A stretch of 64,000 nucleotides of DNA from Acidimicrobiales bacterium (lineage in GTDB: Bacteria; Actinomycetota; Acidimicrobiia; Acidimicrobiales; GCA-2861595): contig DATLFN010000058.1 in assembly GCA_035540975.1 (NCBI GenBank), forward strand, positions 463-64,462. Direction: 5' to 3'. How positions within the stretch are numbered: position 1 is the first letter of the stretch; each line of letters begins with the position of its first letter. The translations under genes were made by a program, and so were the position numbers. A model generated the notes under the pieces. That model ran no database searches and was not told the DNA's origin. It saw only the letters and a list, made by a program, of their open reading frames with translations. Shown here piece after piece: positions 4,775-48,121 of the stretch.

Positions 4775-6741
<1,967 letters not shown>

Positions 6742-6764
6742 AGCTTCGTCCTCCGGGACTGTCG

Positions 6765-6819: not shown

Positions 6820-6845
6820 GCGCGCACGGCGCCCGGGGCGCGTCG

Positions 6846-8464: not shown

Positions 8465-8518
8465 TACGCCCTCCCGCCGCCCGGCCCGGCCTCCCGGGGG
8501 ACGCCGGGGTCGCCGTCG

Positions 8519-9693: not shown

Positions 9694-10256
9694 ACCGGCA
9701 CCGCCAGGTGCTCCTTGGCCCGCACCAGGTCGGCCCGGATGCCTGCCATGGCCTCGCCCGCCGATCCGCTGCGCAGGACGAACGACGGGTGGTAGGTGGG
9801 CACGACGACGGCGTCCCGGTACCGGTAGGCGCGGCCCCGCAGGGCCTTGATGCCGGCCGAGGCGCCGAGAAGCAGTCGAGCGGCGAAGTTCCCGAGGGTC
9901 ACGATCACCCGGGGGGCGATCAGCTCGATCTGGCGCTCGAGGTACGGACGGCACGACGCCACCTCCTCGGGGAGGGGGTCGCGGTTCCCGGGCGGGCGGC
10001 ACTTCACCACGTTGGCGATGTAGACGCTGTCCCGGCCGACGCCCAGCTCCTCCCGCAGGAGGCGGTCCAGCAGCTGCCCCGACCGGCCCACGAAGGGCTC
10101 GCCCTTGAGGTCCTCCTCGTGCCCCGGGCCCTCGCCCACGAACATCAGGTCCGCCGAGGGGTCGCCCACGCCGAACACCACGGTGGTCCGCCCGCCGGCC
10201 AGCGGGCACCGGGTGCAGGACAGGGCCTCGCGTTCCAGCTCCGCCAGGGCGAGCAC
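9690..10256 (-). CDS. Family-4 uracil-DNA glycosylase (Fe-S type), 188 aa
   Basis: CTRCPL...[37 protein letters not shown]...[14 protein letters not shown]...HPSF are family-4 UDG motifs. The start is set at GTG 10254-10256, which is uncertain. The frame stays open far upstream only because the region lacks stops. Confidence 0.85.
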
Positions 10257-10327
10257 GACCGCGAATGGTAGTGGCGAGCCGGGGTGCGGACGGCCGGATC
10301 GGGGCGACGAACGGGGCTGAGGCCCGC

Positions 10328-13300
10328 TCAGGGCGCGAAGAGGAACCGGCGGGCCACCATGGCCGCCCGGGCGTCGCCGCCGAACAGCCCGGTCGGGCGG
10401 GTCGGGCACGGCGCAGAGGAAAGGGGGGCCGGCGTCGGCCCGCCGCAGCCGGCGCGGGTCGTGAGGGCTTCCCGGGACCACCCGCCGCCCCGCCACGGCA
10501 CCCGGACCCGGTCGAGCGGCGAGCGCCCGTCGGCGCCGCCTCCGTCGACGGGGGTCGGCGGGCCGGCGGACGGGGCCGGGCGTCGCCCGGCGCCGACCAG
10601 GCTGCTCCGCGCGCCGGCCGTGGGGGCGTGGGGCGCCGGCGCGGTCGCGACCCCGACGGCAGCTCCGCCGACCAGCGGGACGACCGACCGGGGGGCGTCC
10701 CGGCCGGCGGTCGAACGGCCTCCGGCGGGCCGCGCATCGATCGGGCGGTCGCCGCCCGGGACCAGCGGGACCGGCGCGAGCGCCGGCAGCTCGCCCGCGG
10801 GCCCCGGACCGGCGGCAACGGGCCCGGGGAGCACGAGCCGCGTACCGGGCGCCAGCTCGCCGGCCATCACGGCTGGGCCGTCGTCGTGCTCGTACCCGAG
10901 GACGTGGCCGAGCTCGTGCACGAGCACGCTGAGGAGGTCCATCCGGCCGGCGGGCACGGGCGACAACGGGTCGAGGTGCCACCCCCATCCGGCGGCGTCG
11001 GCGTCGAGCAGCACGGTCGTCCCGATGACCTCGGCCACCTTGCCGGCCTGGAGGTCGGCGACCTCGACCCGCACGCCCGAGAGCAGCCCGGCGTCGGCGC
11101 CGGCGGCCACCCACTCCTGCACCGCCAGCGCCAGCACCGGCTCGGCGTCGGCCGCGGACAGCACGCGCGCCGTCGTCCCCGGCCCCGCCGGCTCCGCCGC
11201 CGTCAGCGCCCGCTCGTTGTCGAGGATGGTCACGGTGGCCGAGCCGTCGCCCACGGTGGCGTTGGTGAAGGACGTGACGTTCACGGAGAACGTCTCGGTG
11301 TCCTCCTTCACCCGGTCGCCGATGACCGGGATGGTGAAGGTGAGGCTGGTCACGCCCGGGGCGAAGGTGAGCACCTTGGTGACGGCGCCGTAGTCCGACG
11401 CCGCGACGGCCGAGCCGTCGGCGGTCGACAGCGTGACGGTCACCGTCGAGGTCGACGCCGCCGACAGAGTGACCGTGATGGTCACGTCCTTGGTGTTGCG
11501 GTCCCCCTCGGTCACCGTGGCGTCGGCGACGCTGACGGCGGGGAGGGTGGCCGGCGGCGGGTTGTCGAGCAGGTTGAGCGAGGCCGCCGCCGGCGTGCCC
11601 ACCACGTAGCTCGGGCCGGGCAGGGTGCTCGGACCGAGAGTGACGGTCACCGTCTCGGTGGGCTCGGCGGTGGCGTCGGTCTTCGGCGTGACGACGAGCG
11701 TCATCGTGGTGGAGCCGGCCGAGAACGTCGCCACCAGGCCGTCGGCGCTGATCGTGCCGCCGGCGGCGGACACCGTGTAGTCGGTGCCGAACGTGGCCGT
11801 CCCGCTCCAGACGACGTTCACCTGGAGCAGCACCGACAGGTCGCCGTCGCGGCGCAGCTCGTAGGTGCCGGGGGCCTGGCCCAGCTCGGAGGCCACGTCG
11901 TCGGTGGTCGTGACGGTGACCGTCGGCGTCACCGGCGGGGGCGGCGGGGGCGGGGGCGGGGGCTGGCTGGCCTCGAACTGCGGGTCGTTGGTGCGAATGC
12001 GCCAGCGGTCGGCCGACGCCGTCCCGCCGCGGGCGAGGAGGCCGAAGCGCCCGTCGGCCACCGCCGCGTTGTAGCCGTGGCTGCCGGCGAAGGACCCGTT
12101 CACCACGACGCTGACCGAGGCGCCCTTGATCATGAGCTGCACGGTGTGGTCGGCGCCCGCCGCCAGCACCCACGGGGTGACCTTGTCGATCGTCCACCCG
12201 CCGTTGGGCGCGTGGTGCCCGATGAGGACCTGCTGCCCCGGCACGTCCAGCACCACGAACTTGAAGTCGTCGACGTCGTACTGGTCGAAGACGATGCCGC
12301 CGGTCCCGCCGGTGCGGACGACGGCGGTGAGCTCCAGGAAGGCGTTGGGCTCCAAATTGGTGACGGTACCGTACGTGGCCAGGGCCAGCTCCGACACGCC
12401 GGCCGGCGCCGTGCCCTCGAGGCGGCCCGAGACCGTCGCCCAGTCGGGGTTGGCGGCGAACACCAGCGTGCCACCGTCGAACGTCTCCTCGGCGTCCAGC
12501 GTGGTCGCCGGCGGCAGAACCTGGACCGCCACGTTGTCGAACGTGCCCCGCGCCCCGTTCGAGCCGATGCCGATCATGCCCTTGTTGAGGCCGACCGGCA
12601 TGCCGAACAGCGTCCGGGTGGGGAAGGTGTACGTGAAGTAGGCCGTGCCGTCGACGGTGACCGTCACGTTCGTGCCGTTCACGGCGACGAGCATCTGGTA
12701 GTAGGTGTCGGGCTTGATCTGCACCGGCTGCTGCGCCACCACGTGCCACCCGGTGGCGTCCCGGTAGCCCATCTCGAACTTGTCGGTCGAGATGTTGATG
12801 CCGGCGAACTTGAAGTCGGTGGGGCTGAAGTAGTCGAAGATCACGTAGGCGTTGGCGTTGAAGCCGCCGGTGGGCTTCACCGACTTCACCGACGCCCGGA
12901 TCTCGTAGTACACGGGCAGGTACTGGTCGTGGTTGAACACCGCCACCGCGTCGCCCGTGGTCGTGTTCGACGACACCTGGAGCGTGCCGCCCGAGACGCT
13001 CCACGTGCCGCTGTCGGGGGCGAAGGAGGAGAAGGTGCCGTCGTTGAAGTCGGCCGAGCGCAGGACGTCGCGGTGGCCGCCCGGGATGTTCCCGGCCTGG
13101 GGGTCGGTCGGGCCGCCGGCCTGGTCCTGCCACAGCCCGTGGTCCTGCTGGATGACGAGGCCGATCTCGCCGTAGGGCTCGCCGTGGCGGGCGATGAGCT
13201 CGGGGTCGTCGGCCGTCTGGTCGGCGGCGCGGGTGGGGTCGGCGCCCTGGCTGCGGGACAGCTCGTAGAGGAACTCGAACAGCTGGGGCGGCACCTGGCG

Positions 13301-16300
13301 GCTGACGGTGGCGATGCCGAAGGGGGCGAAGGGGACGATGTAGGAGTTGAACTCGCCGATCCAGTCGATGAGCCGGTCGCCGCCGGTGTTGCCGATGAGG
13401 ACGTCGAGGCCGGCGCCGCCCACCGCCCGGTCCTCGTAGCTCGGATGGGTGTCCGGCGTGTCGTTCGGGCTGGGCTGGATCTTCTTCGGGTGCTTCGGGT
13501 CCGGGTAGTTCGGGTCGTCGGCCCAGGCGACCACGTCGTCGGCGTTGAGCAGGTCGTTGCCCCAGCCGCCCCACAGCGTGTCCTTGCCGGTGCCGCCCAC
13601 GATCCAGTCGTTGCCCAGGTCGCCGAAGATGACGTCGTCGCCGTCGGTGGCCACCGAGTTCATGGCCAGGCAGGCGCCGTTGGGCGAGAACAGCACGCAC
13701 CCGTTCACCAGCGGCCCCTCGGTGGTGCTCCAGTTGAGGAACCAGTTCCAGCCCGAGGTGTTCTTCGCCGCCGTGCCGTTGTCGTTCAGGGCGATGGCCC
13801 GGCGCGGGTCGTACTCGTCGTAGAGGGCGAACTCGCCGACGCGGTCCTCGTTCTGGTTGCTGGTGTGCCAGGCGTCGTTGTCGGCGCCGAAGTCGAGGGC
13901 GTTGCCCCGGTTGTACGGGCGGGTCCAGTCCGAGCGGATGACGCCGGCGCCGTCGAGGCGTTGGGTGTAGTTGGCGTCCATGGCCTCGGCGCCGGACATG
14001 GCGTCGTCGCCCGAGCCGCCGTGCAGGAAGTCGCCGCCGAGGCCGCCGAAGATCACGTCGTCGGAGTTGTTGGCGTCGAACAGCGAGTCGTCGGCCGCCC
14101 CGGTGGGCGTGTGGTTGAACGGCGTGATGTCGAAGGCCTTGGCCAGGGCGCCGCCCACGTTGATGGTGGCCTCCTGGATGTGGCCCGGCGTGTAGATGAG
14201 CTCGTCGAGCACGTAGCCGTCGGTCACCCGTGTGTCGGGATCGCCGATGCGGAACCGGTACACGCCGTAGAGGGGCTCCGAGAGCTGGGTGGTCCAGCAG
14301 TCGGGCTGGTTGTTGGCCTGGGTGCACCCGGTGTTGCGGCTGGTGAGGATGCGGCCGTCGTCGCCCAGGATGCCGTCCGAGCCGGTGCCGCCCGAGAACC
14401 AGTCGGCGCCCCAGCCGCCGACGAGGTCGTCGTCGTCGGCGTCGCCGAACAGCACGTCGTGGCCCACGCCGCCGTACCCGGTGTCGTCGCCCGCCTCGCC
14501 GTGGATCTCGTCGTTGCCGCCGATGTCCCGCAGCCAGCTGTTGCGGCCGGCCGGGTCCTGGAGGGCGAGCACGTTCGAGCAGGTGCTCATGGTTTCGGAG
14601 CCGGCGGTGCTGCACGGGCCGGCGCCCGGGGCGGCGAGGCCGAAGGCCGACGGGTCGTAGTCAGGACCGCCCACGGTGTAGTCGAGGAGGTACACGCCGC
14701 GGACCACGATCTTCTCGGGCCCGTAGTTGTCGTAGTTGAAGGTGACGTAGGCGGGCAGCGACGGGTCGCCGGTCGGGTTGATGTCGATGCCGTTGACGCC
14801 CACGATGCGGATGATGCGGCCGTTGTCGCCCACGATGGTGTCGGCGTCGCGGGCGTGGCGGGAGGCGTCGACGGTAGCCAGCGTGAGGTCCTGGTCGTTG
14901 CGATCGGCCTGGGTGCCCGCACCGCCGAAGATGATGTCGGCGCCGTCCGGCCGCAGGAGCGCCCCGCCGCTGAGCTGGGCCGCCGCCCCCACCTTGCTCG
15001 TGCCCAGGGCGGCGCCGAGGAGGGCGGCGTAGGCGTCGTCGAGGCTGAAGAAGTCGCTGCTGCCGCCGACGATGTCGTCCTGGCGCAGGCCGCCGAAGAT
15101 GACGTCGTTGCCGCCGTTGCCCTCGATGTAGTCCTCGCCGTCGGTGACGGCCTCGAACGACGGCACCAGGTCGAGGTCGCCCACCACGTCGCACACCGTG
15201 CCCACGCAGCCGTCGGGCGTGCGGGAGGCGCCCACGTGCGACGTACCGGCGAAGGCCGAGGCGATGCTGCCGTCGCCCTGGATGATGTCGTGGCCCAGCT
15301 GGCCGAAGATCATGTCGTGGGCCGGGCCGCCGGCGATGTAGTCGTTGCCGAAGCTGCCCGCCGCCTCCGTGCCGTTCTCGATGGCGAAGGTGTGGAACTC
15401 GGCGAAGTCGATCTCGTACTCGGCCCACCAGGGCGCCCCGTCGGGATCGCGGTAGTGGCGCTCGGTGCCGTCGGTGAGGAGCTGGCCGCTGGCATCGGCG
15501 CTCGGGAAGGGCGCCCGGTCGGAGCGGCTGTAGAGCAGGGTGCCGGCGAGGGTCTGGAACCGCGGGCTGAAGAAGTCGTCCTTCAGCAGGCACTTGACGT
15601 TGTCGCCGAAGATCAGGTCGTCCGCCCCGCCGCCGTCGATCATGTCGTGGCCGGCGCCGCCGATGAGGATCTCGGGCCCCGAGCCGCCGAAGATCACGTC
15701 GTCGCCGCCGTTCTGGTAGCGGGCCGAGCACACGGCGACGATCAGGTCCGCCTGCGTGGTCTGGATCCGCTGGAGGCGGGGGTCGGGCAGGTTCGGGTCG
15801 ATGACGTCCATGAGCACGACGCCGTGGTCGCCGAACACCACGTCGATGTACACCCGCTCCGGGCCGCCGAGGATGGTGCCGGGCCCGTTGCCCTCGACCC
15901 GATCACGGCCGGCGTCCAGCGAGTCGGCCACCGGGGACGGGGAGGGCTCGATGGTCGTGCCGTTGTTCTGGAAGCCGACGCCGGTGATGGTGGGCAGCGG
16001 GCTGGCGTTGGCCACCGGGATGTACAGGGCCCGGTCGAGGATGTTGACGTTGATCCCCGAGTCGCCGTACACGTGGTCCACGCCCCGCAGGCCGAGGATG
16101 ACGTCGTCGCCGGAGCCGCCGGCCAGGTGGTCGCCGGCCTGGCTGCCGGTGATGGTGTCGTTCCCCTCGCCGCCGTAGGCGGTGACGCCGATGGTGGGCA
16201 GGGTGCACGAGGCGAGGGTGCACGGCACGGTGGCGAACAGGTTCGAGGCGTTGATGACGTCGTGGCCGGCGTAGGGGTACGGGTCGGCCAGCGGGAAGAT

Positions 16301-19300: not shown

Positions 19301-22300
19301 GACCAGGATCTCGTCGTCCAAGCCGGTGTAGTTGCCGTTGAACGTGCCCGGCTCGATCACGATGGTGCGGCGGTCCTCCTCACACCCGGAGGGCAGCGAG
19401 CAGGAGCCGGGGGTGATCTCGGTGACGTAGATCCCCGGCGTGTCGTTGTCGCGCAGGGTCACCTCGACGTTGCGGACGAGGTAGGCGTCCAGCTCGGGGT
19501 CGTCCGGGGCGATGACGCTGTGCTGGACCACGACCACCCGGTCGCCCTCGGAGCGGGTGTCGTCGACGGCGTACACGTAGACGTACTGCGGCGCCGTGTC
19601 GCCCGGGGCGAAGGTGAGCACCAGGGCCCGCTGGTCGACGTCGACGAACTGGCCGTCGATCCACGCGAAGCGCCGGAACTCGTCCAGCTCGTCGCAGCCG
19701 GTGCCCCCGAGGGTGCTCGACGTGCACAGCCACAGGGTGTCGCCGGGGCCGCCGGTGAGCGGGAACGGGTTGACGAGGAGGTCGTCGGCCTCCTCCTGGG
19801 GCGAACGGGCGGCCGAGACGGTGACGTGGACGGGGCCGGCCATGGCCGCCGCGGCCAGGGCGTTGATGCGCACCGAGTACACGTCGGCCGTGGGCGAGGA
19901 ACCGCCGAAGGTCGGGGCCGGGCCGTTCTCCCGGACCGTGGTGCCCGAGCCGGTCTCCTCGACGATGATGGCGCCCACCGCCGGGACCGACACGTTGGTC
20001 TCGATGCCGTCGGTGGGCAGGCCGTCGTAGCCCGGGTCGCCGGAGGTGACCCAGTGGTCGACGGCGCCGCTGATGCCCTCGAGCTCGCGGGTGATGATGT
20101 CCTCGGTGATGTCGCCGGTGACGTTGATGGTGTCGCTGCCCAGGCCGCCGATCACCCGGTAGGCCACGCCGAAGGCGGTGGACTGCACGAAGAACTCGTC
20201 GTCGCCCTCCAGGCCGTCGACCTCGACGATCTCCAGGTTGGCGTAGCGCACGTTGAGGCCGGCGCCGAAGATCCCCGACTGGGTGATCACGATGTCGTCG
20301 GCGAACTCGGTGCCGAGGACGATCAGCTTGTCGATGCCGGTGCCGCCGTCGACCGAGACCGGAGCGTTGACGTTGTACTGGACCTCGTCCTCGCCGCCGC
20401 CGGTGCGGATGTCGAGCGGGCGGTCGGTGGAGAAGCCGCTGCCGATCACGGGCCGGGCCACGTTGTCGGCGTCCAGCGGGATGACCTCGGCCTGCCACGG
20501 CTTGGAGGCGAGGTCGGCGTCGGCGTTGTTGCAGGTGCCGTCGCCGTTGTTGTCGAGCCGGAAGGTGCCGTCGCCGTTGATACAGGCCGGCGTGGGAACC
20601 CCGTTCACCGTCTTGGAGCCGTTCACCAGCGGGAAGCGGCCGGTGACCAGGTCGGCCTCGAGGGTGACGTCGGAGAGGCCGCACACCCCGTCGCCGTCGG
20701 TGTCGGTGTCGCACACGGCGGCGATGGCGAAGGCCCGCACCACGAACAGGTCGTTGTCGTCGTCGCCCTCCAGGCGTAGCTCGGCCTGGTTCGAGTACAC
20801 GGTGAACTCGTCGTTGCCGGTTCCGCCCTGGACGACCATCGGGGCCGAGATGCCGGGGCTGAGCCAGCCTCGGGTGGTCGGGATGAGCTCGGGGAACGTG
20901 TCGTTCGGCACCAGGACGCCGATCGGGTTGTCCCGCTTGGTGCCGAAGATCTGGCCGATCTGGAAGGTGTCGAAGCCGGCGCCGCCGTCGAGGGTGACGA
21001 TCACGCTCGTGTCGTCGGAGAAGAAGGCGTCGTTGCCGCCGCGGCCGAACACGCTGAGGCGCCCGTTCAGGCCCGTGTCGTAGTTGACCCGCTGGACGAA
21101 GGGGTTGGGGGCGTCGACGTCGCTCGGCCCGTCGAAGCGGTGCTCCTCCAGCGGGCCGTGGAGCAGGACGACGAACCCGGGCCGGTCGGCGTCCGCCGCC
21201 GTGGGTGAGGTGCAGCCGTAGGCGGCGTCCAGGGCGTACGGGCTCTCGGTGTCGATGCAGGTCACCCGGCGCAGCAGGAAGACGTCGTCCGTCGGGTACT
21301 TGGTCACCATGGGCAGCTGCGACGGGTCGTTGCCGTTGAGCGTCGAGTTCCTCCCGTACATGGCCAGCTCGTCGACGCCGTCGTCGGGTGCGCCGGTGTC
21401 GAGCACGTTGATCACGTAGTTGCGGTCCGGGCCCTGGCTGCCGGTGGTCCAGATCTCGTAGAAGTCGGTGTCGGCCTGGCCGTCGAGGGTCAGGGCATGG
21501 CCGGCGCCGTTCGGGTAGGCGGGCGAGCCCTTCACGTCGGCCGTCTGGAGGAAGTAGACGAGGAAGCGGTCCTCGCCGTCGTCGCCGGCGGAGTCGAGGT
21601 CCTGGCTGCCGTGGACGTCGGTCTTCGAGCCGATGAACACGTAGCCGCTGGCGCCGTGGGTCTCCAGGCCGCCGCCGGCCAGGGCCGGGTCGCCGCCGGT
21701 GTCGCCGAACTGGAAGGTGTCGGCGTCGGTGTGGCCCCAGATGTTGGTGGTCTGGCCCGTCACCGGGTTCACCGTGGACGGCTGGCACGAACCCATGGGG
21801 TCGCCCGTGGTCAGCACGCAGTCGGCGATGATGCGGCCCCGCAGCACGGCGGTGGCGCCGAAGTGCTCGTCGAGATCGGTCAGCGGGTCGTGGGCGGCGC
21901 TGGCCGCGTCGATGTAGATGTCGATGCCGCGGGCGGCCAGGACCTCGCTGTTCTGGTGCAGGTCGACGTCGTCGCCCACCCGCAGGAGCACTGAGCCCTT
22001 CTCGGCGAAGATGCGGGCCCGGGTGATGAGGCGGGGGGCGTCGGGGTCGTTGCCCGGGAGCCGGGTGCCGCTCTCGGCGAAGCGGGCCGAGCACGACGAG
22101 GCCACGGTGCAGCCGAGGAGCACCAGGTCCTCGTCGAGGTCGGGCGTGGTCTCCCGCACCGTCAGACGGATGTCGCCGTCGTAGGTGTGGGCCAGGGCCA
22201 GGCGCAGCGTCGCGTCGGTCTCGGTGAGGTAGATGCCGTCGGTGGCCTCCAGGGCCACGTCGCCGGTGCCGCAGCTCGGGCTGACGGCGCACGAGGAGTC

Positions 22301-37300: not shown

Positions 37301-40300
37301 GTCCCGGACCAGGGCCTCGACCGTGTTGGCCACCGTGTTGACGGCCACGGCGGCGGCCAGGCCGAAGGCCAGCGAGCCACCGCCGCCGCTGTTCGAGGCA
37401 CCCACGGCACCGGCGAAGGCGGTGCTGGAGACGGTGGCGCCGGACGTGGCCGTCACCGACACGGAGCCCGTCTTCGCCGCCGTCGTCCCGAGGGGCGAGG
37501 CGTCGACGATGGCCCGGACGGTGTTGGTGACGGAGGCGACGACGACCCCGGCGCCGATGGCGGCGCCGCCGCCGAAGCCCTGGCCGCCGTTGGCGATCTG
37601 GATGGCGATCGCCCCGGCTGTGGCGCTGGTCGAGGAGGCGTCGGAAGCGGCGACGGTCACGGGGCCCGCCGTGGTGATGGCACCGGACTGGATGACGGCC
37701 GTGGTGGTGTTGGCGACCGTGTTCGAGATGCCCGAGCCGGCACCGGCCAGGCCGGCCGTGGAGCCCTGGCCCGTGCTCACCGAGCCGGCGATGCCGATGG
37801 CGACGGCCGACACGGTGGCGGTGGAGGACGAGGTGACCGACACGCCGGCGGCGGCCGTGACGGGCGAGTCGGTGACGGCGGCGGTGACGACATCGGCCAC
37901 GTCGTTGACCACCACGGCGGCACCGACGGTGACCGACCCGCCGAAGCCGCTGCCGGTGACGTTCAGCGAGGCGGCCAGCCCGCCGGCGTCGGCGTCGATG
38001 TCGGACTCGTCGACGGCGGCGACGGTGACCGCCCCGCCGGTGGTGGTGACGGGCGAGTCGGTGATCAGAGCCTCGACGGTCAGGCGGACGGTGTTGCCGG
38101 AGCCGGCCCCGGCGCCGGTGCCCCCGATGCCGCCCTGCTGGCTCTGCGAGAAGCTGCCCGTACCGGCCAGGCTCAGGGCGTCGACGGTGGCGCGGGCCGT
38201 CGCCGTCACGGTGACCGACTGGGCCTGGACGGCGGGCACCGAGGTGATGGCCGCCTGCACCGTGCGGGTGATCGAGTTCGACGAGGCCGAGATGGCGACC
38301 GATACGTTGAACACGCCGCCCTGGCTCTTGCTCACGGCCAGCGTGGCGGCGCCGGCGTCGGCCGTGATGGTCGACTCGTCGAGGGCGGTGATGGCGAGCG
38401 CGCCGCCCACGCTGAGCACCGGGGTGGCCGTGACGAGGGCGACGGTGGAGCCGGTGACGGTGTTGCCCGAGCCGGAGCCGGCACCGGTGAAGTTGATCCC
38501 GCCGCCCTGGCTGGTGCTGGTGACGGTGCCGGCGATGCCGAAGGTGAAGGCGTCGATGGTGGCGTCGGACGTGGCGGAGACCGTGAGGTTCCCGCCGACG
38601 GTGACCGACGCCGAGGCGACGGTGGCGAGCACGTCGGCGTTGATCTCGTTGACGGCGAGCGCGGCACCGACCGTGACGTCGGCGCCACCGCTCTGGCGGG
38701 ATGACAGCCCGACGGCGGCCCCGCCGGCGTCGGCGTTGATCGTGGAGGTGTCGGAGGCCGACACGGCGGCGTCGCCGGTGACGTTCACGACGGCACCCGT
38801 GCGGACGGCGGCCTCGACGTCGCTGTCGACCGTGTTCTTGGAGGCGGCGCCGGCGCCGGCCAGGGAGAACCCGGACCCGCCGCCGCTGCCGCCATGCGTC
38901 GCCGTGAGCCCGCCGGCGAACGTGAGGGCGTCGATGGTGGCGTTGGCCGTGGCCGAGACGGTGGCCCCGGCGGCGGTGACGGTGCTCGACTCGACGGTCG
39001 CCGTGGTCTCGGTGTCGACGCCGTTGAACGCGATGGACGCACCGAGGGCGACGGCGCCGGGTGGGCCCTTGTTCAGCACCACGGCGACGGCGCCGGCGTC
39101 GACCTTGATCGACGCGTCGTTCACGGCCGTCACCGACAGGTCCCCGCCGGCGACCACCGTGGCCCCCGAGACGGACGCCTTGGTGCGGTTGGCGATGCCG
39201 TTGGCGCCGCCGCTGCCGGCACCGGCGAACGAAACGCCGCCGCTGCCACCGCCGCCGCTGCCGCCGCCGGTCGAAGCGCTGCCGGCGATGCCGAGGGCCA
39301 GCACGGCGATGGCGGCCAGGGAGGACGCCTGCACCGACACCAGCGAACCGGCCAGGACCGAGGTGCCCGGCTCGATGGAGGCGAAGACGTCGTTGGCCAC
39401 GTCGTTGAAGCCGAGGCCGGCCGCCACGGTGAGGCTGTTGCCGCTGCCCGACGTCTTAACGGCGACCGCGGCGGCCGCCGTGTCGGCGTCGATCGTGGAG
39501 GTGTCGGTGGCCGTGATGGACACCGAGCCGGCGGTGGCCGTGACCGACGACGTGCCCCGCACGGCGGCCCGCACGACGTTGGCGACGCTGTTGACGGTGA
39601 CGGCGCCGGCGCCCACGGCCGAGAACCGGCCGTTGCCCGAGCCGCTGCTGTTGGTCTGCACGGCACCCGCCCCGGCCACCGCCAGGGCGTCGATGGTGGA
39701 GGAGGAGGTAGCCGAGATGGCGACGTCCTGGGCTGCCGTCACCGTGGAGTCGTCCACCAGCGCCTCGACGGTGTTGGCCACGTCGTTGATGGCGACGGAG
39801 GCGCCGAAGGCCAGCGTGTTGCCGCTTGTGACGGCCACGGCGGCGGCACCGGCGTCGGCCGTGACCACGGTGGCGTCGGAGGCGGCGACGGTGACCGAAC
39901 CGCCGGCGCTCACGTCCGAGCCGTCGAGCCCGGCGCGGGCGGTGTTGGCCACGCCGTTGAAGACCACGCTGCCGGCCAGGTCGAAGCTCCAGGGCGTGCC
40001 GCCGCTGCGCTGCTGGCTCCCGGAGATGGTGGCGGCCAGGCCGATGGCCAAGGCGTAGACGTCGGCCTCGGTGCCGGCCTCGATCACCACGTCGCCGGCC
40101 GCGTCGACGTCCGACCCCACCACGGTGGCCTCGGCGTCGCCGTCGGTGGTGTTGACGGCGATGGCGGCGCCCACGTTCACGCTGCTGCCGCTCGGGAACA
40201 GCACGAGGGTGGCGACGCCGGCGATGGCGTCGATCTCGCTGCTGTCGGACGCCGACACCTTCACCTGGCCGGCGGCGGAGACGCCGTTCGGGGCGGCCGC

Positions 40301-43300
40301 GTTGGTGATCCGGGCGGACACGTCGTTGTCGATCTCGTTCTTGGTGACGGCCCCGGCGCCGTTGAAGGCGATCGAGCCGCCGCCGCTGGAGCTCTGCGTC
40401 CCGTTGGTGGCGGCGCCGGCGATGGCGAGGGAGAAGATGGTCGCCGACTCCAGGCCCTCGACGAGCACGTCGCCGCCGGCGGCCACGTCGGACGAGTCGA
40501 CGAGGGCGTTCACGTCGTTGGCGATGGAGTTGATGGCCACCGAGGCGCCCAGGGTCACGGCCGTTCCGCCGGTCCGGGCCAGGGCGGCGGCGCCGGCGTC
40601 GGCGTCGATGTCGGAGGTGTCGGACGCCCGGACGGTGACGTCCCCGGTGCCGCCGGTGAGCACCGTGGAGCCGGTCCGCACGATGGCCTCCACCACGGTG
40701 GCGATCGAGTTGCCGCTCCCGGCGCCCGCACCGGTGAAGTTGAACCCACCGCCGCTGCTGCCCCCGCCGCCGGAGGAGAGGGCGCCGCCGATGGCGATGG
40801 TGAGGGCGAAGATCCCGGCGTCCTCGGTGGCGAGGACGTCGACGGCCCCGGTGGCGGCCAGCGAGGACGCCTCGACCAGGGCGCGGACCACGTTGTCGAC
40901 GTCGTTGAAGGCGAGGGCCACGCCGAGGCTGAACCCGTTGGCCGCCTGCCCCGAGCCGCTGGCCTGGGTCAGGGACAGGGCGCCGGCGATGGCCTCGATA
41001 CGGGTGGTGTCGTCCGCCTTCACGGTGATCGAGGCCGCCCTCAGGCTGCTGGCGTTGCCCACCGAGGCGGTGGTGGTGGCGACCACCTCGTTGAGCGACC
41101 ACGTGCCGGCCGCGGCGCCGACGAACGGGCCGCCGCTGCCGCCGCTGCTCGAGGCCAGCGACGCCGCCCCGCCGATGGTCAGGGCGAAGATCGAGAGGTC
41201 CGAGACGGCCTGGACGTCGAGGTCGCCGGCGACGACGAGGTCGGTGTCGTCCACCAGCGCCGACACCGCGGCCGAGATGTCGTTGAAGGCGAAGGAGATG
41301 CCGAAGGACAGCGACGTCCCGCCCTTGGTGCCGCCGGCCACCCGGGCGATGGACACGCCGCCGCTGTCGGCGGTGACGTCCGAGGAGTCGGTCGCCCGCA
41401 CGAGGACGCCGCCGCCGTCGGTCGTCGTGACGGCGCCGCCCACGACCTCGGCCTTCACGACCGACGTGATGTGGTTCACCGAGCCGGCCGCCGCCCCGGC
41501 CAGGGCGAACGGGGCGCCGCCGCTGCCGCTGCCGCCGGAGGCGCTCTGCGACTCGTTCACCAGCGCACCGGCCACCGCGATGATCAGGATCTCGGCCGCC
41601 GAGCTGGCCACGACTTTCACGTCGCCGGCGGCGTCGACCGTCGTGTTCACGAGGTGGGCGACCACCGTCTGGGAGAGCGTGGTGATGGCGGCGGAGGCGC
41701 CGACCGAGGCGTCGATGCTGTTGGCGCCGCCGCCGCCCTGGCCCGGGTTCTGGTTCTGGCCGTTCTGCTGCGTCTGGTCCCGCAGGTTGACGGCGAAGGC
41801 GCCGGCGATCACCAGCAGCTCGCTGAAGTCGGCGTCGGAGGCGTAGGCGGCCCGCACGTCCAGGGCGACGTCCGCCGGGTCGGTGCCGTCGCCGGTGGTG
41901 ATCGTGGCCCCGTCGACCAGCGCCTCGATGGTGCCGGCCACGTCCAGCCAGGTGATGGAGCCGGCGATGGCGGCCGTGTTGTCGACGTTGGCGCCGGCCG
42001 CCGCCACCAGCCGCACCTTGTCGTCGGCGGTGGCGTCGACCACGACCTTCTTGGCGGTCACGGTGCGGGCGCCGATCGTGGCCAGGACGCTGCGGTCGAC
42101 GTCGAACCAGCCGAAGGCCACGCCCACGCCGATCTTCACGCCGCCGGCGGCCGAGCCGGCGATGATCGTGACGTCGTTGCGGTCCGCGGCGTCGACGGTG
42201 AGCGTGCCCCCGATCGTGAGCGGCGACCCGGCGTCGAGGCGGACCTCGACGACCTTGGTGAGGGAGACGGCGGCGGCCGAGCCGGCCAGCCCGAACTCCT
42301 CGGCGCCCTTCTCGGAGGCGGCGGCGACGGAGATTCCCTTCACCTCGGATGAGGCCTTGACGGAGACGTCACCCGGGACCGTGCCGTTGACGGTGCCGGC
42401 GACGAAGGCTCGCACGGTGACGTCGAAGAGGTTGACGTCGATCCCGGCGCCGAAGCCGAACTTCGTCTGGCGGGCGTAGCCGCCGGCGTCAGACGTGAGC
42501 TGGATGACGTCCTTCGCCTCGACCCTGATGCTGTCGGGGTCGGTGATGACCGTGGCGCTCCCGACGCTCGCCTCGGTCGTGTTGGTGACCTGGTTGAGGT
42601 TGACCGCTCCGGCCACGGCTGCGGTGCCGCTTGACGGTTGCTGTTGCTGCCCAGCCGGTGGCCCGCGGATGCCGCCCGCCGCGCTGGCCGACGTGGAGAT
42701 CAGGCGGGTGTCGGTGGTGGCGATGATGCTGACGTTCTGCACGTCGGCGACGGTGACGTCGCCGGTGCGGGCGGTGGTGATCTGGTTCACCACGTTGTTC
42801 GTGAAGCTGCCGGCGATGCCCACCGAGGTGTTGGACTGGTTGGCGGGCGGCTGGTTGCCCTGGCTGCTGGTGGTGCTGGAGTTCTTGGTGCTGGCCCGGT
42901 CGAGGGCGTAGGGCGCCGAGATGGCCACGATCATGCCGTTGGCTGCCGCCTTGATGCGCAGGTCGCCGCCGATGGTGATGGTGCCGCCGCCGTCGAGGAC
43001 GGCGTCGGTGACGGTGGCCACGTCGTTCCAGGAGACGACGCCCGAGATGTCCATGCCGCCGGCGCTCTTGGCACCCTGCTGGGTGGTGTTGGTGCTGCTG
43101 GCGTTCTGCTGGGTGCCACCGGTGTTGGTGCCGGCCGGCTTCACCTGGCCGCCGAGGGCCTCGCCGGCGATGGCGATGGCGTAGAGGCGGGTGCCGGTAG
43201 AGGCGAGGATCACCACGTCACCCGTGGTCGTGACGTTCCCCGCCGGCGTGGCCCCGCCGTTGACGTTCCCCCGGATCGCCCTGGCCGTCGCGTCGACGTC

Positions 43301-46300
43301 GTTGACGGCGATGGAGATGCCGGCGCCGAGGCTGGTCTCGCCGGTGGCCGGGTCCTTCTGGATGCTGCCGGCGAACACGACGGCGATCACGTCGCTGGTG
43401 GCGTCCAGCGTGAGGTGCACGGCGGTGACGGTGGCGCCGTCCTCCAGCACCGCGGTGGCCGCGTTGGTGGCGCCGGAGAGGACGATGGTGCCGGCGATGC
43501 CGAAGTCCTTGGCCGCCGCGCCCGCCTCGGCCACCGTGACGGTGAGCGTGCGGGCATCGGCGCTCACCAGCACGTCGCCGCCGGGAGCGGAGAGCGTCGC
43601 CCCGTCGTCGACGACGGCGCTGGCCGTATTGGCCTTGGACGTCTTGAGGAAGGTGACGCCCACCGCGCTGCCGTCGCTCTTGGCGCTGATCTGGATCTTG
43701 GTGTTCTGGTCCTTGTCGCTGTCGACCGTGCCGAAGAACGAGAGCACCGAGGCGAACCCGCCGAGGTCCACCGTCTCGGAGAGAGCCTGGGCGTCGACGT
43801 GGATGCTCGGCCGGCGCACGGCATGGGTCCCGGCGACGGCCGGCAGGTCGGCCGTCTTGAGGTCCAGGCCGGTGCCGCGCCGGGCGAGCTCGCGGGTCCT
43901 GGCCAGCTTGACCTTGTCGGCGTCCACCTTGATCACGTAGTAGGTCTCGCCGTCCACCAGGCCGTGGACGGCGGTCGTGGTCGCGTCCTTGCGGTAGGTC
44001 ACCGCGTCGCCCGTCTCGAACCCGTGGGCCGTGAGAGTGAGCTCGTCGGTGGTCTCGTTGACCGCCGAGGTGCCCGCGAACGTCTTCTGGACCACGGGCC
44101 CGGCGGTGACGTCGGCGCCGCTGTCCACGTGGGCGGCGGCGGCGTTGGCGACGGTGAGGAACAGGAAGCTGCCGCCGAAGGCGAACTTCGTCTGCGCCTG
44201 CTGTTGGCCACCCGTCCCGGTGTTGCTCTGCTGGGTGGTGGCCGACTCCTTGGCGGCACTGGCCCCCACGTAGGTGTTGGCCTTGCCGCCCGCCACCGCC
44301 GAGTTGCGGTCGATGAAGCCCTGGAGGAAGTCGAGCTTGGCGACGGTGTCGGCCAGGTCCTGCTCGAGGTCCGTGGCCGGGTCCTTCGACACGAAGTCCC
44401 AGATGTCCTTGATGGCGTCGTACCAGGGATCGTCGTCGATGTCGGGGACGTTGAGGCTGACGTCGAGCAACTTGGCCAGGTCGGCGTCGACGGCCAGGGC
44501 CTTGGGCATGGTGGCCTCGGCCACCACGTTGACGTCCTTGGTCGCGGTGACGCTGGCCGCGCCGATGGAGGCGTCGGCGTCGTTGTCGTAGGTGGCGAAG
44601 GCGATGCCGCCGGCCAGGGCGGTCTGCCCGCCCGCGCTCGACCCGCCGATGGCGATGGTGGAGAAGGTGTCCTCGGTACGGGCCAGCACGAGCACGACGT
44701 CGGCGTTCACCACGGCGCCGTCGGCGATCTCGGCCACGGCGGAGTTGCCGCTGAAGGCCAGCACCAGCGCGGCGGCGAACTCCAGGCTGAGCTGGTTGTT
44801 GGCGCCGGTCTGGGGGTTGGTTCCCTGGGCCTGCGACGTCTGCTGGGTGTTCTGGCTGGCCGGGGTCGACTGCTGACCGCCCCGCACCAGCGAGCGGGCC
44901 CGGGTCTCGTTCTCCTTGTTCACCGAGCGGGCCTCCACCGTCACCTTGCCGTGGTTCGCCGTGGTGGACGACGTGGTGCCGTCGAGGACGGCCCGGGCGT
45001 TGGAGTCGGCCTGGCTGATGGCAATGCCGGCGGCGATCCCCCTGCTGGTCGGCTTGATGACCAGGCTCTCGGTGGCCACCTTGAAGGTGTTCTCGACCGC
45101 CGCCCGCACGGTGACGTTGCGCCCGGTGAGGCTGGGCGTGGCCATGGCGATGTCGGCGTTCGAGACCGGGCGTCCGTAGGTGACGGCCAGCGAGGGGCCG
45201 CTGGCCTGCTTCTTCGGGGCGGAGGCGTTGGCCGTGGTGCTCTGGTTCTCGACGCCGCCGACCACCCACGTCTTGGCGTCGAGCTCGTTGACGACCCCGG
45301 CCAGGATGGCGAGGTCGCCGGTGGCGTTGACGGTGACGGTGCCCTCGAGCACCACCGTGGCCGTGCCCTTGGAGACGGCGACGGTGAAGCCGTAGTCCTC
45401 GGCGCTCCAGTTGTCACCGGCGTTGGGCGTCTCCGGCTTGGTCTTCAGGGCCACCGTGTGGAGGAAGACGTCGGAGAGGGCCTTGGCCTCGATGGTGGTG
45501 TCGCCGGTCGAGGTGATGGTCACCAGGTCCCGCAGCGTGAGCGTGCTCTCCGAGCGGCCGAACACGCCTTGGGCCCGCACGCCGGAGATGTCGAGCAGCG
45601 GGTCCTGGGCGCCGATCAGGTCGAGACCCGACTCGACGAGGCTCGGGATCTCGAACCCGAGGAGGCTCGCCAGCAGGTCGAGGGTGGTGAGCTGCTGGCC
45701 CGACTGGAGGATGCGGTGGACCTTGCGCACCTCGACGAACGGGTCGCTGGTCTCGTCGGTCAGGGTGGCCTCGGTCGTGAGGGTGAGCACGGTCGCGGTG
45801 AGCGAGTCGATCTGGTACATGCCGTTGTTGGAGCCGGTGCCCAGCACGTAGATCTCGTTGCCGGCGGCGAAGCCCTCGGCCGTCCAGTCGCCCTCCTCGC
45901 GGGTGATGGTGCGCCCGGATGCGGCGAAGGTGAGCTTCTTGAAGTCCTTGGCCGCCACCTCGGGGTCGAGGGCCACGATGGGAGGGGCGGTGACCTCGAA
46001 GGCCTTGATGGTGACGTCGGTGTCGCCGGTGGTGGGGGACAGCGTCTCCGTGGCGACGATGGTGATCTTGGTGGCCTCGACGGTGAGGACGTGGAACTCG
46101 CCGTCGTTGGCCGTGCTCCCGGTGATGCGGACGATCTGGCCCGCCTTGAACCCGTCGTCCACGAAGCTGCCCGAGGCGCGGGTGATGGAGTCAGCCCCGG
46201 TGCCGCCGTCCACGAAGTCGACCGTGCCGGTGAAGGTGGCCTTCTCCTCCTCCTCGGCGTCGAAGAGGGTGATGACGTCCAGGTTGATGTCCGCCAGCTT

Positions 46301-48121
46301 GTGGAGCTGGGAGTCGACGAGGAGGACCACGTTGGCGCCGTGGAGGGTGGCGCCCGCCTTCACCTCCAGGGTCGACACCAGGTCGCTCCCGCTGAAGTCG
46401 GTGACGGAGGTCGTGAGGCGCTGGTCGTACACGTTGACGACAGCCAGGCGGAGGTCGCCGTCGACGTTCAGGGTGGAGCCCGCGCCGACGGTGAGGGTGC
46501 GGATGGCCTCCAGGTCGAGCTTGACCGTGGCGCCGCCGTCGGTGAGCGACACGCCGTCGTCCACGCTCACCGTGTCCCACTCGCGCGCCTCGACGTCGCC
46601 GGCGAAGGCGACCGCGGAGTCGAAGACCAGGGCGTCGGTGTCGTCGTCGGCCGAGTCGGCACCGCCCTTCAGGACGAGCTTGACGGCCAGCGTCCCCACG
46701 CCCTTGACGGTGAGCGTGTCGCCCCCGGAGCCGAGGTCGATGGTGAGCGAGCCGCTCGGTGCGGCGAAGGTGTGATCCTCGAACAGGTCGTTCATCGACT
46801 CGAGGAGCAGATCGGTGCCGCTGACCTTGAGCTCGACGACGTCGTCGCCGCTGCTGCCGACCAGTGTCAGGTTGGTCGCGTCGCCGATGATCACCGGCTC
46901 GAGGCCGGCGTAGGAGAACTCCACGCCGTCGAGCGTCACCACGCCCGAGTCCGGTCCGGTGGCCCGGTAGACGGCGGTCTCGTGGCGCGCGCGGACGTCG
47001 AGCACGTCGAAGCCCCGGTCCCCGCCGTCGACGGTGCCGGTGAGGGACCCGCCCTCCTCCACCACGAAGGTGTCCTCGGTGTCGGACGCCCCGACCAGGC
47101 GCTCGACGCCGGAGAAGGCGATGAAGCCGACGGCGCCGCGGTCGGGACCGGTGATGCTCCACGTGCTGTCGACGGCCGGGGCCCGGAGGGTGTCCGTGCC
47201 CGCGCCGCCGGCGAAGGTGACGCCCACCGTGCCGGCACCGACGGCCACCTCGACGGCGAGGTCGTCGTCGCCGTTGGTGCCGTTCACCAGTATGTCGGAG
47301 ACCATGGCCAGCGGTCGGGACCGGCCGCCGATCGTCACGTGCCCGTCGGCCGAGAAGACGAGCGTGGCCGGGCCGTCGGACAAGGTGATGTTCCACGGGG
47401 CCGGCGCGCCCGGGTTGGTGGCGGGGTCCGCGGTGGCGGCGGTGGTGACCGCCGCCGGCTCCGTCGACGTGGTCGTCGCCAGGTCGCCGGTCGTGGTGGC
47501 GGTCGCCGCCGACGGGGTGGGGGCGGCGGCGGTCGTGGTGGGCTTCGGGGCCGGCTCGGTCGTGGTGGGGGCGGTCGTGGTGGGGTCGGTCGTGGTGGTG
47601 GGCGACGGCAGCGGCACGACCTCGCCGGGCGGCGGCGTCGGCGCGGCGGCGAGTGGCACGCCGGCGCTGTGCCCGGGTGCCAGCGTCGGGCTCATGACGC
47701 CGTCGCCGTGGCCCAGGCCGAGGACGTGGCCGAGCTCGTGGCGCAGCACGGTGGCGAGGTCCATCCGAGACGCGGCGTCCTCGAGGTGCATCACCGACCA
47801 GCCGTGGCCGGCGGCCACGGGATCGACGGTGATGGTGGCGCCGGTGGACCGGCCCAGCTCGGCGTCGGCCAGGTCGGCGACGGTGGCGGTGACCGCCGCC
47901 AGGTCGGCGTCCGGCCTCGCCGAGAGCCAGTCGCCCTTGGCGGCGGCCAGGGCGGCGTCCAGCGCCGCCTGCGTGAGTGGGCGGGCGTCGGCGGCGGCCG
48001 GTGGCGCGGTGGCCGACACGAGCAGTTGGGCGGTCGCCGGCAGGGCGCGACCGACGGGCGGGACGACGCTGGCGGCCAGGGCCAGGGCCAGCGCGAACCG
48101 TCGAGCCGCGGCCCGCGTCAC
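10328..48121 (-). CDS. Giant secreted repeat protein, 12,597 aa (about 1.2 MDa estimated from length), multi-domain putative surface fibre or adhesin
   Basis: This is the only frame open across the full 37.8 kb, from the GTG start at 48119-48121 to TGA at 10328-10330. It has an N-terminal signal peptide. Recognisable extracellular modules share this frame: HExxHxxGxxH x2, GGxGxD motifs, LamG-like x2 and Calx-beta-like x2. It lies on the same strand as the surrounding operons. Confidence 0.9.
10331..10831 (-). other. 167-residue Pro/Gly/Arg/Ala-rich C-terminal tail of the giant protein, with no recognisable sorting signal
   Basis: Low-complexity sequence ending ...ARRFLFAP. I saw no LPXTG/LAXTG motif and no clear TM-plus-basic anchor. 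Confidence 0.5.
10832..11170 (-). other. C-terminal metzincin-like mini-module with [11 protein letters not shown] and a downstream VMA
   Basis: The first His codon is at 10916-10918. It aligns position-by-position with the N-terminal module (AR.L...W...VADL...D..AAG.GW...[18 protein letters not shown]...LAPG). Confidence 0.7.
11216..11926 (-). other. Two Calx-beta-like domains preceded by a Pro10 hinge (11933-11962)
   Basis: ...[18 protein letters not shown]...[24 protein letters not shown] and [12 protein letters not shown]...[19 protein letters not shown]...[32 protein letters not shown]...ATVTILDN. Confidence 0.8.
11981..13060 (-). other. Two LamG/concanavalin-A-like jelly-roll domains
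   Basis: [27 protein letters not shown]...[18 protein letters not shown]...[19 protein letters not shown]...GTFDNVAV, then a second copy TFDGG...[17 protein letters not shown]...[18 protein letters not shown]... Confidence 0.75.
13358..16189 (-). other. Region with dispersed hemolysin-type (GGxGxD) calcium-binding nonapeptide clusters
   Basis: [29 protein letters not shown]; [32 protein letters not shown]; [20 protein letters not shown]; [57 protein letters not shown]; [20 protein letters not shown]; [27 protein letters not shown]. Confidence 0.8.
16615..18730 (-). repeat. Cluster of six ~40-aa D-G-F-x-x-G-Q mini-modules (two more copies at 45776-46171)
   Basis: [12 protein letters not shown]; [12 protein letters not shown]; [17 protein letters not shown]; [17 protein letters not shown]; [14 protein letters not shown]; [17 protein letters not shown]. 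The N-terminal copies are [14 protein letters not shown] and [14 protein letters not shown]. Confidence 0.65.
18960..19990 (-). other. Two beta-sandwich (Calx-beta/cadherin-like) domains, each ending in V-x-[LV]-x-D-[ND]-D-T-P-G
   Basis: One ends ...[23 protein letters not shown] and the other ...[20 protein letters not shown]. The assignment is by eye and the family is uncertain. Confidence 0.5.
25540..26520 (-). repeat. Cluster of five ~45-aa H-G-x-x-x-G-D...G-L-x-x-G-x-x-Y-Y-V mini-modules (a sixth copy is at 43892-44032)
   Basis: [33 protein letters not shown]; [35 protein letters not shown]; [15 protein letters not shown]; [34 protein letters not shown]; [17 protein letters not shown]. 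The distant copy reads [35 protein letters not shown]. Confidence 0.65.
28100..30470 (-). repeat. Type-B repeats: about 15 units of ~52-56 aa beginning A-[YF]-[VL]-G / A-F-V-G
   Basis: [22 protein letters not shown]..., [11 protein letters not shown]..., [20 protein letters not shown]..., [18 protein letters not shown]... through [14 protein letters not shown], read directly. Confidence 0.65.
30470..45330 (-). repeat. Type-A repeat core: roughly 70-80 units of ~57-68 aa (longer near the N-terminus), Ala/Ser/Thr/Val/Gly-rich, alternating-residue beta-strand pattern
   Basis: The recurrent pattern is V-x-V-x-A-x-[DE]-x-[ST]-x-I-x-A ... G-A-[AS]-[VI]-A-[VI]-N-x-[IV]-x-[ND]-x-V-x-A-x-[VI]-x-x-S-x-V-x-A-x-G, read along residues ~930-5885. 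The boundaries are approximate. Confidence 0.75.
30780..36740 (-). repeat. Eight tandem ~735-760-bp super-repeats (four type-A units, ~250 aa each)
   Basis: The landmark [10 protein letters not shown](A) or close variants recurs at about 36.7, 35.99, 35.24, 34.49, 33.74, 33.00, 32.25 and 31.51 kb. Adjacent copies share long near-identical stretches. Confidence 0.8.
47396..47641 (-). other. Thr/Pro/Ala-rich linker (residues 161-242)
   Basis: [52 protein letters not shown]..., a low-complexity spacer typical of secreted actinobacterial proteins. Confidence 0.8.
47672..47986 (-). other. N-terminal metzincin-like mini-module (residues 46-150) with [11 protein letters not shown] and a downstream VMS Met-turn candidate
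   Basis: The HExxHxxGxxH motif starts at His128 (47738-47740). It is paralogous to the C-terminal module at 10832-11170. Confidence 0.7.
48029..48121 (-). other. Signal peptide of the giant protein (residues 1-31, [31 protein letters not shown]|QLL)
   Basis: Basic n-region, hydrophobic core and an A-T-A cleavage-type motif. The cleavage site is predicted by eye only. Confidence 0.7.

Follow-up and report, generated by a model that had tools for sequence, protein, structure and literature searches.

A 37.8-kb gene of an uncultured Acidimicrobiales bacterium encodes a full-length member of a widespread giant protein family and probably a calcium-stabilised surface fibre

A stretch of 64,000 nucleotides from an Acidimicrobiales bacterium (GenBank assembly GCA_035540975.1, contig DATLFN010000058.1, positions 463 to 64,462; here called the window) carries one gene that occupies 37,794 of its 64,000 bases (59%). 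The gene lies on the minus strand at window 10328..48121 and runs from a GTG start to a TGA stop over 12,597 codons, as given in the list of open reading frames (ORFs). It is a full-length representative of a family of giant proteins that is already on record, widespread and uncharacterised. With a probability of roughly 60%, its product is a Sec-exported surface fibre or adhesin that is stabilised by Ca2+ and disulfides and is built almost wholly of beta-repeats.

The 37.8-kb frame is one real, coding gene and not a GC-rich artefact. Its translation contains a single TGA, which is terminal. A preliminary description made from the letters alone had reported a single minus-strand ORF of this span and of 12,597 residues, and our own translation and the ORF list agree with it. 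Counted from stop to stop, the frame is open for 12,648 codons, whereas the longest open frame in dinucleotide-preserving shuffles of the whole window (n = 100) reached at most 1,069 codons (mean, 786). Across thirteen tiles of 1,000 codons, the GC content at third codon positions (GC3) never leaves the range 0.97-0.99. In such tiles the first and second codon positions have lower values, 0.57-0.73 and 0.45-0.66, respectively, and this difference is the coding signature of a genome with about 73% GC, seen in the frame of the giant gene. The preliminary judgement that the gene is genuine is therefore upheld by both composition and frame length. The longest rival frame is antisense, 22187..38704 (+), with 5,505 residues, the same competitor that had been singled out before. 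The plus-strand ORFs inside the gene (up to 5,505 residues, some with GC3 of 0.97-0.99) were considered as genes and rejected. Long antisense 'shadow' ORFs of this kind arise from the codon bias of the giant gene. The computed mass of the product is 1.242 MDa, in line with the earlier estimate of about 1.2 MDa, and its pI is 4.2.

By its sequence, the long stalk of the protein belongs to the curated repeat family NF012206 (LktA_tand_53), which is described as 'tandem repeat-containing filamentous protein'. Five tiles over residues 1001-6000 score 80.8, 329, 375, 378 and 295 bits against a model cutoff of 50 bits, and the matches total 64 stretches. The repeat core had been called unassignable to any named family, a statement that these matches overturn. 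A hidden Markov model (HMM) of a single unit finds 63 units in the stalk, 59 of which form an unbroken tandem array at residues 2126-5822. The unit period is 57-71 residues with a mode of 61-62. The corresponding DNA spacing is 183-186 nt, and four units make up super-repeats of 735-756 nt, which appear in the protein as 245-252 residues at residues ~4150-5750. A second, degenerate repeat shows self-matches within residues 5800-6600, and a weak HMM match extends out to residue 6553. The structure of the super-repeats was predicted with AlphaFold2, a check that the preliminary description had proposed. The alignment consisted of twelve paralogous windows from within the protein. The model of residues 4208-4711 is all-beta, with a predicted local distance difference test score (pLDDT) of 93.8 and a predicted TM-score (pTM) of 0.90. 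About 93% of its residues are in strands of 13-25 residues with two-residue turns between them. Foldseek returned no significant PDB analogue of the stalk model, the top matches being curli CsgA (E 0.32) and FapC, at E 0.3-0.6.

The conserved core lies C-terminal to the repeats, and about 3,500 of its residues match nothing in Pfam, NCBIfam or PDB. The AlphaFold2 model of residues 8101-9300 (pLDDT 75.5, pTM 0.74) contains many short strands, as in beta-helices. Foldseek found no significant match for this model either. The top entries were HxuA (E 0.4), RsaA, RTX lipases, serralysins and the MpIBP antifreeze beta-helix. When both models were compared with PDB and BFVD, none of the matches was significant, and the lone BFVD match at E 7e-4 has a TM-score of 0.15. 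Tiled domain searches had also been suggested. They assigned the stalk to NF012206 but left large stretches of the protein without a Pfam match. With 1,000-aa tiles, and with shorter pieces at a relaxed E<=1, Pfam gave nothing for residues 150-1800 and 6000-10600, and a PDB sequence search gave nothing for residues 1-2000 and 6001-10000.

Named domains are concentrated towards the end of the core and beyond it. The calcium-binding nonapeptides noticed by eye are borne out by 21 GGxGxD matches and by Pfam HemolysinCabind at 67.8 bits in 4-6 stretches, which identifies them as RTX blocks. In a sequence search these blocks match PDB RTX chains, including that of CyaA. Two LamG-like domains had been proposed. 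One is detectable as a ConA/LamG-like lectin fold (28.1 bits against a cutoff of 26.8), while the second has no Pfam match. Similarly, one of the two proposed Calx-beta-like domains is strong (residues 12200-12302, E 7e-21) and the other is weak (residues 12105-12187, E 0.012). Cysteines occur as 20 short-range pairs with a spacing of 2-46 residues, all within residues 7462-12572, that is, in the C-terminal ~40% of the protein. Nineteen of the pairs are in the family core, and there is no cysteine before residue 7462. An unassigned domain with about 55 residues per repeat and the pattern GF..GQ.I.I.G...N.G.Y.I..V....L.L is seen near both protein ends, at residues 619-786 and 10159-10313 (nt ~45764-46267 and ~17183-17647), and also in a homologue from Pseudosulfitobacter. 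This pair was rejected as a second LamG, as it has no Pfam match, and it is probably what the preliminary description had taken for one.

Relatives of the core are numerous. A homologue database was queried with pieces of 1,500 and 597 residues. Residues 8101-9600 matched 33 proteins at 36-47% identity with up to 100% query coverage, all of them named 'hypothetical' and without a Pfam domain in the region. These proteins are from Micropruina, Nocardioidaceae, Acidimicrobiia, Microbacteriaceae, Burkholderiaceae, Mesorhizobium and Roseococcus. No match in this database was longer than about 2,600 residues, and the matches included no entry for the giant protein or for the identical 3' fragments of it on other contigs. 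Since very long proteins seem to be missing there, full-length relatives were located in nucleotide sequences instead. When one genome for each GTDB species was scanned with a pattern built on a conserved stretch of 221 residues (trimmed alignment of seven sequences), 75 loci with core homology emerged. The loci are distributed over Actinomycetota, Chloroflexota, Planctomycetota, Alpha-, Beta- and Gammaproteobacteria, Bacteroidota, Spirochaetota and Verrucomicrobiota, and include isolates and complete genomes. At most of them the frame is open across the entire 20.5 kb fetched (>6,800 codons). Giant ORFs related to the core are spread over dozens of genera, with cultured Microbacterium, Sinomonas, Ensifer, Mesorhizobium and Neptuniibacter among them, and the relatives are mostly free-living soil and marine bacteria. 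Colinear identity is 69% over 4,156 residues to a Mycobacteriales metagenome-assembled genome (MAG), 46% over 5,211 residues to Pirellula, and 45-48% to Microbacterium, Sinomonas, Ramlibacter and Neptuniibacter. Residues 8301-9500, compared exhaustively by phmmer with 1.84 billion cluster representatives, gave 1,454 matches at E<=1e-3 and 486 at E<=1e-30. On plasmid NZ_CP110618.1 of Rhodococcus antarcticus (locus L087, 23145-26275), a 3.1-kb unannotated gap separates two giant-homologous coding sequences of 6,747 and 2,189 residues. One frame is fully open through the gap, with 1,043 codons and no stop. This plasmid probably carries one longer giant gene that is broken or mis-annotated.

WP_114295156.1, a 'LEPR-XLL domain-containing protein' of 12,918 residues, is encoded on the complete plasmid pDSM107133_a of Pseudosulfitobacter sp. 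DSM 107133. It is almost equal in size to the window protein. Residues 6979-12049 of the latter are colinear with its residues 7213-12655 at 33-50% identity, and residues 275-468 are homologous to its residues 239-453. LktA-type repeats occupy its middle (3393-5343), and a GHGW...HEFNH module is present at its C-terminus. The colinear body, the N-terminal segment, the repeats and the terminal module together indicate that the whole architecture is shared. The preliminary description had regarded proteins of this size as rare in bacteria. In public genomes such an architecture is nothing unusual, since the core aligns colinearly with giant ORFs from dozens of genera and a 12,918-residue homologue is already annotated. 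The window protein is thus large rather than unique, being a member of a family of giants that is widespread in many phyla. Nor are giant proteins rare in databases: UniProt holds 41,754 proteins of at least 5,000 residues (PMC11573180), and surveys of giant genes exist (for example, bioRxiv 10.1101/2023.11.21.568195). On the other hand, the earlier statement that no characterised actinobacterial protein of such architecture is known agrees with our search, in which no report of an experimentally characterised family member was found, and 'LEPR-XLL' turned up in the full text of just two papers, neither of which carries it in its title or abstract.

The two giants differ at the N-terminus. The window protein has a Sec-type signal, an extra metzincin-like module and a Pro/Thr/Ala-rich linker, as well as more repeat units. 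The LEPR-XLL model NF012209 (LEPR-8K) had no match in window residues 1-200 even at E<=10, and the Pseudosulfitobacter N-terminus, used as a control, scored 32.3 bits against a cutoff of 17. Linked genes differ as well. A GAF-HlyD gene lies directly downstream in all three alphaproteobacterial loci in which the gene end is visible (L024, L029, L061). Downstream of the Pseudosulfitobacter gene (L086/L088), genes for an HlyD-family adaptor, a site-2 (M50) protease, a SapC-family protein and a prepilin peptidase are annotated. These four look like a candidate dedicated export or processing set for LEPR-XLL giants. None of them is found downstream of the window gene, where a UDG-family gene and tsaE are located instead, and the actinobacterial relative in Allorhizocola (L017) is also without an HlyD-family adaptor gene. 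Plain Sec export therefore seems to serve the monoderm version, which has in addition acquired an N-terminal copy of the metzincin-like module.

The small modules at the two ends of the protein each contain an HExxHxxGxxH zinc site, at residues 128 and 12402, as the preliminary description had recognised, and in each the site is followed, a few residues downstream, by a Met, as in the Met-turn of metzincins. They are 44% identical to each other. Among the 120 homologues listed for the last 597 residues, 45 contain the C-terminal module with the zinc ligands, the catalytic Glu and the downstream Met kept, and its consensus is ..DADAAGWGW..(R)MDLLSVLxHELGHxLGxxH..G(V/L)M..LAPG.R. Many of the module-bearing homologues have a precomputed PF00413 match beside Calx-beta. 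In two alphaproteobacterial giants the module is located about 100 residues from the C-terminus, and several other relatives have no module. We take the terminal module to be a real but accessory minimal zinc-peptidase module with putative activity. The basic tail that follows the C-terminal copy has a GC3 of 0.90-0.93 and is identical in independent assemblies. It is not covered by the homologues, whose coverage of the last 597 residues is at most about 76%.

The giant product is almost certainly exported, judging from its signal peptide, its acidic, Ca-binding composition and its short-range Cys pairs. The predicted signal peptide combines three Arg with a hydrophobic core of 12 residues (Kyte-Doolittle peak 2.55) and an A-T-A|Q site near residue 31, which agrees with the earlier view of a secreted protein. 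Export by the Tat pathway was considered and rejected. The RRFAL motif is off the S/T-RRxFLK consensus, and a Ca-binding, disulfide-bonded substrate of 1.2 MDa is implausible for this route. In the proposed mechanism, the signal peptide would guide the unfolded chain to SecYEG, through which it would be threaded. Folding would take place outside the cell, driven by Ca2+ binding to the RTX blocks, the Asp-rich sequence and Calx-beta, together with the 20 short disulfide loops. The LktA-type array would then form a long all-beta stalk that distances the conserved C-terminal binding region from the cell and presents its lectin-fold and Calx-beta domains for binding. Assuming a rise of ~4.8 Å per rung of ~20 residues over ~11,000 residues, the fibre would be roughly 0.25 µm long (a few hundred nm), which is a rough estimate. 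It would serve in adhesion or in the contact of cells with surfaces and with one another, in the manner of giant RTX adhesins, and the terminal zinc modules would probably process the fibre or its targets. The basic tail and the N-terminus are candidates for retaining the fibre on the cell. In diderm relatives, this body is joined to an N-terminal LEPR-XLL signal and the giant gene is followed by one for an HlyD-family adaptor, for which the monoderm version appears to have swapped in a plain Sec signal.

Comparison with known systems places the protein between several types. LktA of Fusobacterium necrophorum, the prototype of NF012206, is a protein of ~3,200 aa whose tandem repeats are of the family that the stalk matches far above the 50-bit cutoff. 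The window protein differs in its unit spacing of 61-62 residues and in having a further conserved region of 5,000 residues. Moreover, LktA leaves the cell through a type Vb two-partner system (bioRxiv 10.1101/534297) and acts as a leukocyte toxin. No two-partner secretion (TPS; haemagglutination activity) domain is found in window residues 1-1000, where the only Pfam match is the sub-threshold Peptidase_M10, and no TpsB/LktB transporter gene is found in the flanks, which carry housekeeping genes only. Giant RTX adhesins such as MpIBP of Marinomonas primoryensis, LapA and SiiE are exported by a type I secretion system with a C-terminal signal, and have an N-terminal retention module and Ig-like extenders. 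Like them, the window protein is of megadalton size, has an acidic, Ca-dependent design and uses a repetitive extender to project C-terminal RTX and lectin-like or Calx-beta/LapA-like domains. Unlike them, it has an N-terminal Sec-type signal, an actinobacterial host and an LktA-type extender. The sequences to its two sides, of 10 kb and 16 kb, contain no gene for an ABC transporter, a membrane fusion protein or an outer-membrane factor. Sortase-anchored surface proteins of Gram-positive bacteria differ from it in having an LPXTG motif and a C-terminal hydrophobic segment. Ebh of Staphylococcus aureus, with its FIVAR/GA repeats, is mostly helical and is anchored in the membrane at its C-terminus. 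Both Ebh and Giant1-5 of Apilactobacillus kunkeei (for the latter, PMC12863079) resemble the window protein as Sec-exported surface proteins of monoderms with several thousand to ~10,000 residues. No sequence relationship of the window protein to either was seen, although no search aimed at one was made.

Several points weigh against a surface fibre. The signal peptide was called by eye, from hydropathy and motif. No cell-wall anchor was found: the giant protein contains no LPxTG motif anywhere and no hydrophobic or transmembrane segment after the signal peptide, including at the C-terminus. The adhesion role is drawn by analogy with RTX adhesins. As the Foldseek searches gave no significant match, the term beta-solenoid fibre rests on secondary structure and weak top matches. 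Both terminal modules score below the gathering cutoff of 24 for Pfam Peptidase_M10 (N-terminal 23.1 and C-terminal 22.0 bits), and these matches span only profile positions ~96-140 of 159, a third of the model. No expression, proteomic or functional evidence was found for the window gene or for any family member. Finally, the interior 36 kb and the 5' end of the gene rest on a single metagenomic contig and were not found in any other assembly searched.

Other roles for the protein have to be weighed in the light of these points. It may be released as an extracellular scaffold, matrix protein or enzyme-bearing fibre, whose terminal zinc-peptidase modules degrade proteinaceous substrates or prey envelopes. 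The missing anchor motif fits such a product, as does the strict conservation of HExxHxxGxxH and the downstream Met in the terminal modules of the family, and giant genes of Omnitrophota are reported to be connected with the degradation of cell walls by predatory bacteria (bioRxiv 10.1101/2023.11.21.568195). However, the peptidase-like modules account for about 2% of the protein, both are under the Pfam threshold, and the module is missing in several relatives with a visible C-terminus. The strong conservation lies in the 5,000-residue beta region and not in the peptidases. We therefore consider this role unlikely. Delivery of a C-terminal metallopeptidase toxin to neighbouring cells by the beta-stalk, as in contact-dependent competition or polymorphic-toxin exoproteins, is more doubtful still. 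A long filamentous stalk ending in a small HExxH domain is the layout expected from such a protein, the repeats are LktA/FhaB-like, and LktA is itself a secreted toxin that uses a type Vb system (bioRxiv 10.1101/534297). Nevertheless, the C-terminal module is conserved in the family rather than polymorphic and is duplicated at the N-terminus, both the TPS domain and the TpsB partner are lacking, and the genes downstream are a UDG-family gene and then tsaE, with no small immunity gene. A secreted cytolysin of the LktA kind would explain why the NF012206 repeat is common to LktA and the window protein, but the repeat is the only feature shared. The secretion route is different, the window has no equivalents of lktB or lktC, the host is an environmental Acidimicrobiales MAG, and the relatives are mainly free-living soil and marine bacteria. 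There is accordingly very little to be said for this role.

The surface-fibre reading also presupposes that the gene is correctly assembled. A chimeric join or a wrong repeat number would mean that the real gene is shorter, split or reordered. One contig alone spans the gene, and no interior fragments are seen elsewhere in metagenome scans: a JGI scan with the repeat core gave no match, and a scan with residues 8101-9600 gave only relatives at 45-52% identity and one short fragment at 76%, none of them from the same population. An exact look-up of the predicted Alr protein, made to find contigs that reach the 5' end, returned no record. In addition, other assemblies of the same population, at least 10 in number (ENA ERZ272567xx, Logan SRR runs and JGI 33000729xx), agree at 99.2-100% identity with the 3' flank and with a terminal 0.3-1.6 kb of the gene, and their contigs all break off inside the gene (L001-L010 and L089-L094, against window 10618-11908). 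One of them, L003, terminates in a 108-nt inverted duplication, a typical assembler artefact. The giant gene is thus a systematic breakpoint for short-read metagenome assemblers. On the other side, the frame and its GC3 are unbroken across 37.8 kb. As DNA, the stalk repeat copies share only 60-82% identity, which makes assembly collapse unlikely, and the sole array detected by Tandem Repeats Finder is at 47488-47588, in the linker region, with none within the coding repeats. Furthermore, the order of the parts is the same as in the 12,918-residue homologue on a finished plasmid and in several other genomes. The unbroken frame and codon bias, the divergent copies and the shared part order argue against a chimera or a collapsed repeat, and we regard an assembly artefact as highly improbable.

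A more specific proposal concerns the ~5,000-residue C-terminal block. It is conceivable, though we hold it only tentatively, that this block is an extracellular module not described before, whose function is specific and goes beyond generic adhesion, and that it has moved between monoderms and diderms with only the export device being swapped. If so, the window gene would be a clean monoderm example for working out the role of the module. The window gene provides a complete, uninterrupted example of a megadalton exoprotein family that is usually fragmented in metagenome assemblies and is otherwise named just 'hypothetical' or 'LEPR-XLL domain-containing'. One useful point is that the stalk can be tied to the curated repeat family NF012206, with a confident all-beta AlphaFold2 model. 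The ~3,500 residues without a curated domain lie inside a cross-phylum block with 45-69% identity, as measured for relatives in Actinomycetota, Planctomycetota and Proteobacteria, and are a target for domain definitions and structural work. Since export signal and linked genes appear to be the main differences between the monoderm and diderm versions, the two offer a natural experiment on megadalton secretion. General knowledge of bacterial giant proteins is unchanged by the window gene. The features of the protein and of its surroundings are listed in Table 1.

Table 1. Features of the giant protein and adjoining genes, in window coordinates
Feature	Residues	Window position	Strand	Remark
Predicted signal peptide	1-31	48029..48121	-	Sec-type, MTRAAARR start; by eye
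N-terminal mini-metzincin-like module	~43-160	47642..47995	-	AAGHGW ... VMSP
Pro/Thr/Ala-rich linker (PT linker)	~161-245	47387..47641	-	sequence read directly
N-terminal beta-rich region	~250-930	45332..47374	-	without Pfam or NCBIfam match
LktA_tand_53-type (NF012206) repeat stalk	~1074-6022	30056..44902	-	63-64 units
Second, degenerate Ala/Thr/Ser/Gly beta-repeat	~6023-6978	27188..30055	-	self-matches
Conserved family core	~6979-12049 (~5,000 aa)	11975..27187	-	beta-helix-like, Asp-rich
RTX Ca2+-binding nonapeptide blocks	~10650-11580	13382..16174	-	inside family core
ConA/LamG-like lectin-fold domain	11692-11866	12524..13048	-	3keto-disac_hyd / Laminin_G_3
Calx-beta pair (weak and strong)	12105-12302	11216..11809	-	Pfam
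C-terminal mini-metzincin-like module	12318-12445	10787..11170	-	DAAGWGW ...
Pro/Gly/Ala/Arg-rich basic tail	12446-12597	10331..10786	-	ends with Cys pair
Upstream ORF	33 codons	48118..48219	-	GTG start; TGA overlaps the giant gene's GTG (GTGA)
alr		48453-49640		flank gene
UDG-family gene		9690-10256	-	downstream of giant gene
tsaE		9214-9693		flank gene

The host of the giant gene is an uncultured, environmental Acidimicrobiales MAG. Proteins encoded in the flanks, among them S9, S4 and RimI, belong as exact members to clusters whose names come from MAGs of Acidimicrobiales, Acidimicrobiia or Actinomycetota. One flank carries rpsD, rpoA, truA, rpsI, glmM, glmS, a gene for an NAD(P)HX repair enzyme and alr. 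The other carries the UDG-family gene, tsaE, tsaB, rimI, tsaD, groES, groEL, a gene for a GAF protein and guaB. In Mycobacterium tuberculosis, alr-tsaE-tsaB-rimI-tsaD-groES-groEL1 (Rv3423c-Rv3417c) are contiguous. The giant gene and the UDG-family gene, lying between alr and tsaE, break into an otherwise conserved actinobacterial housekeeping cluster, alr-tsaE-tsaB-rimI-tsaD-groES-groEL. Only 71 nt, without a convincing terminator, separate the stop codon of the giant gene from the UDG-family gene, so that read-through into essential genes is possible. In the 5' region of the giant gene, Rfam and promoter/terminator scans gave nothing usable, and a TTGACA...TATAAG pair upstream was not counted as a promoter, its spacer being 21 nt. 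The GTG of the giant gene has no obvious Shine-Dalgarno sequence of its own. The GTG of the 33-codon upstream ORF is located 4 nt past a strong Shine-Dalgarno sequence, GAGGGGGAGG. This short ORF may be a leader for translational coupling, or may have arisen by chance in DNA of 78% GC.

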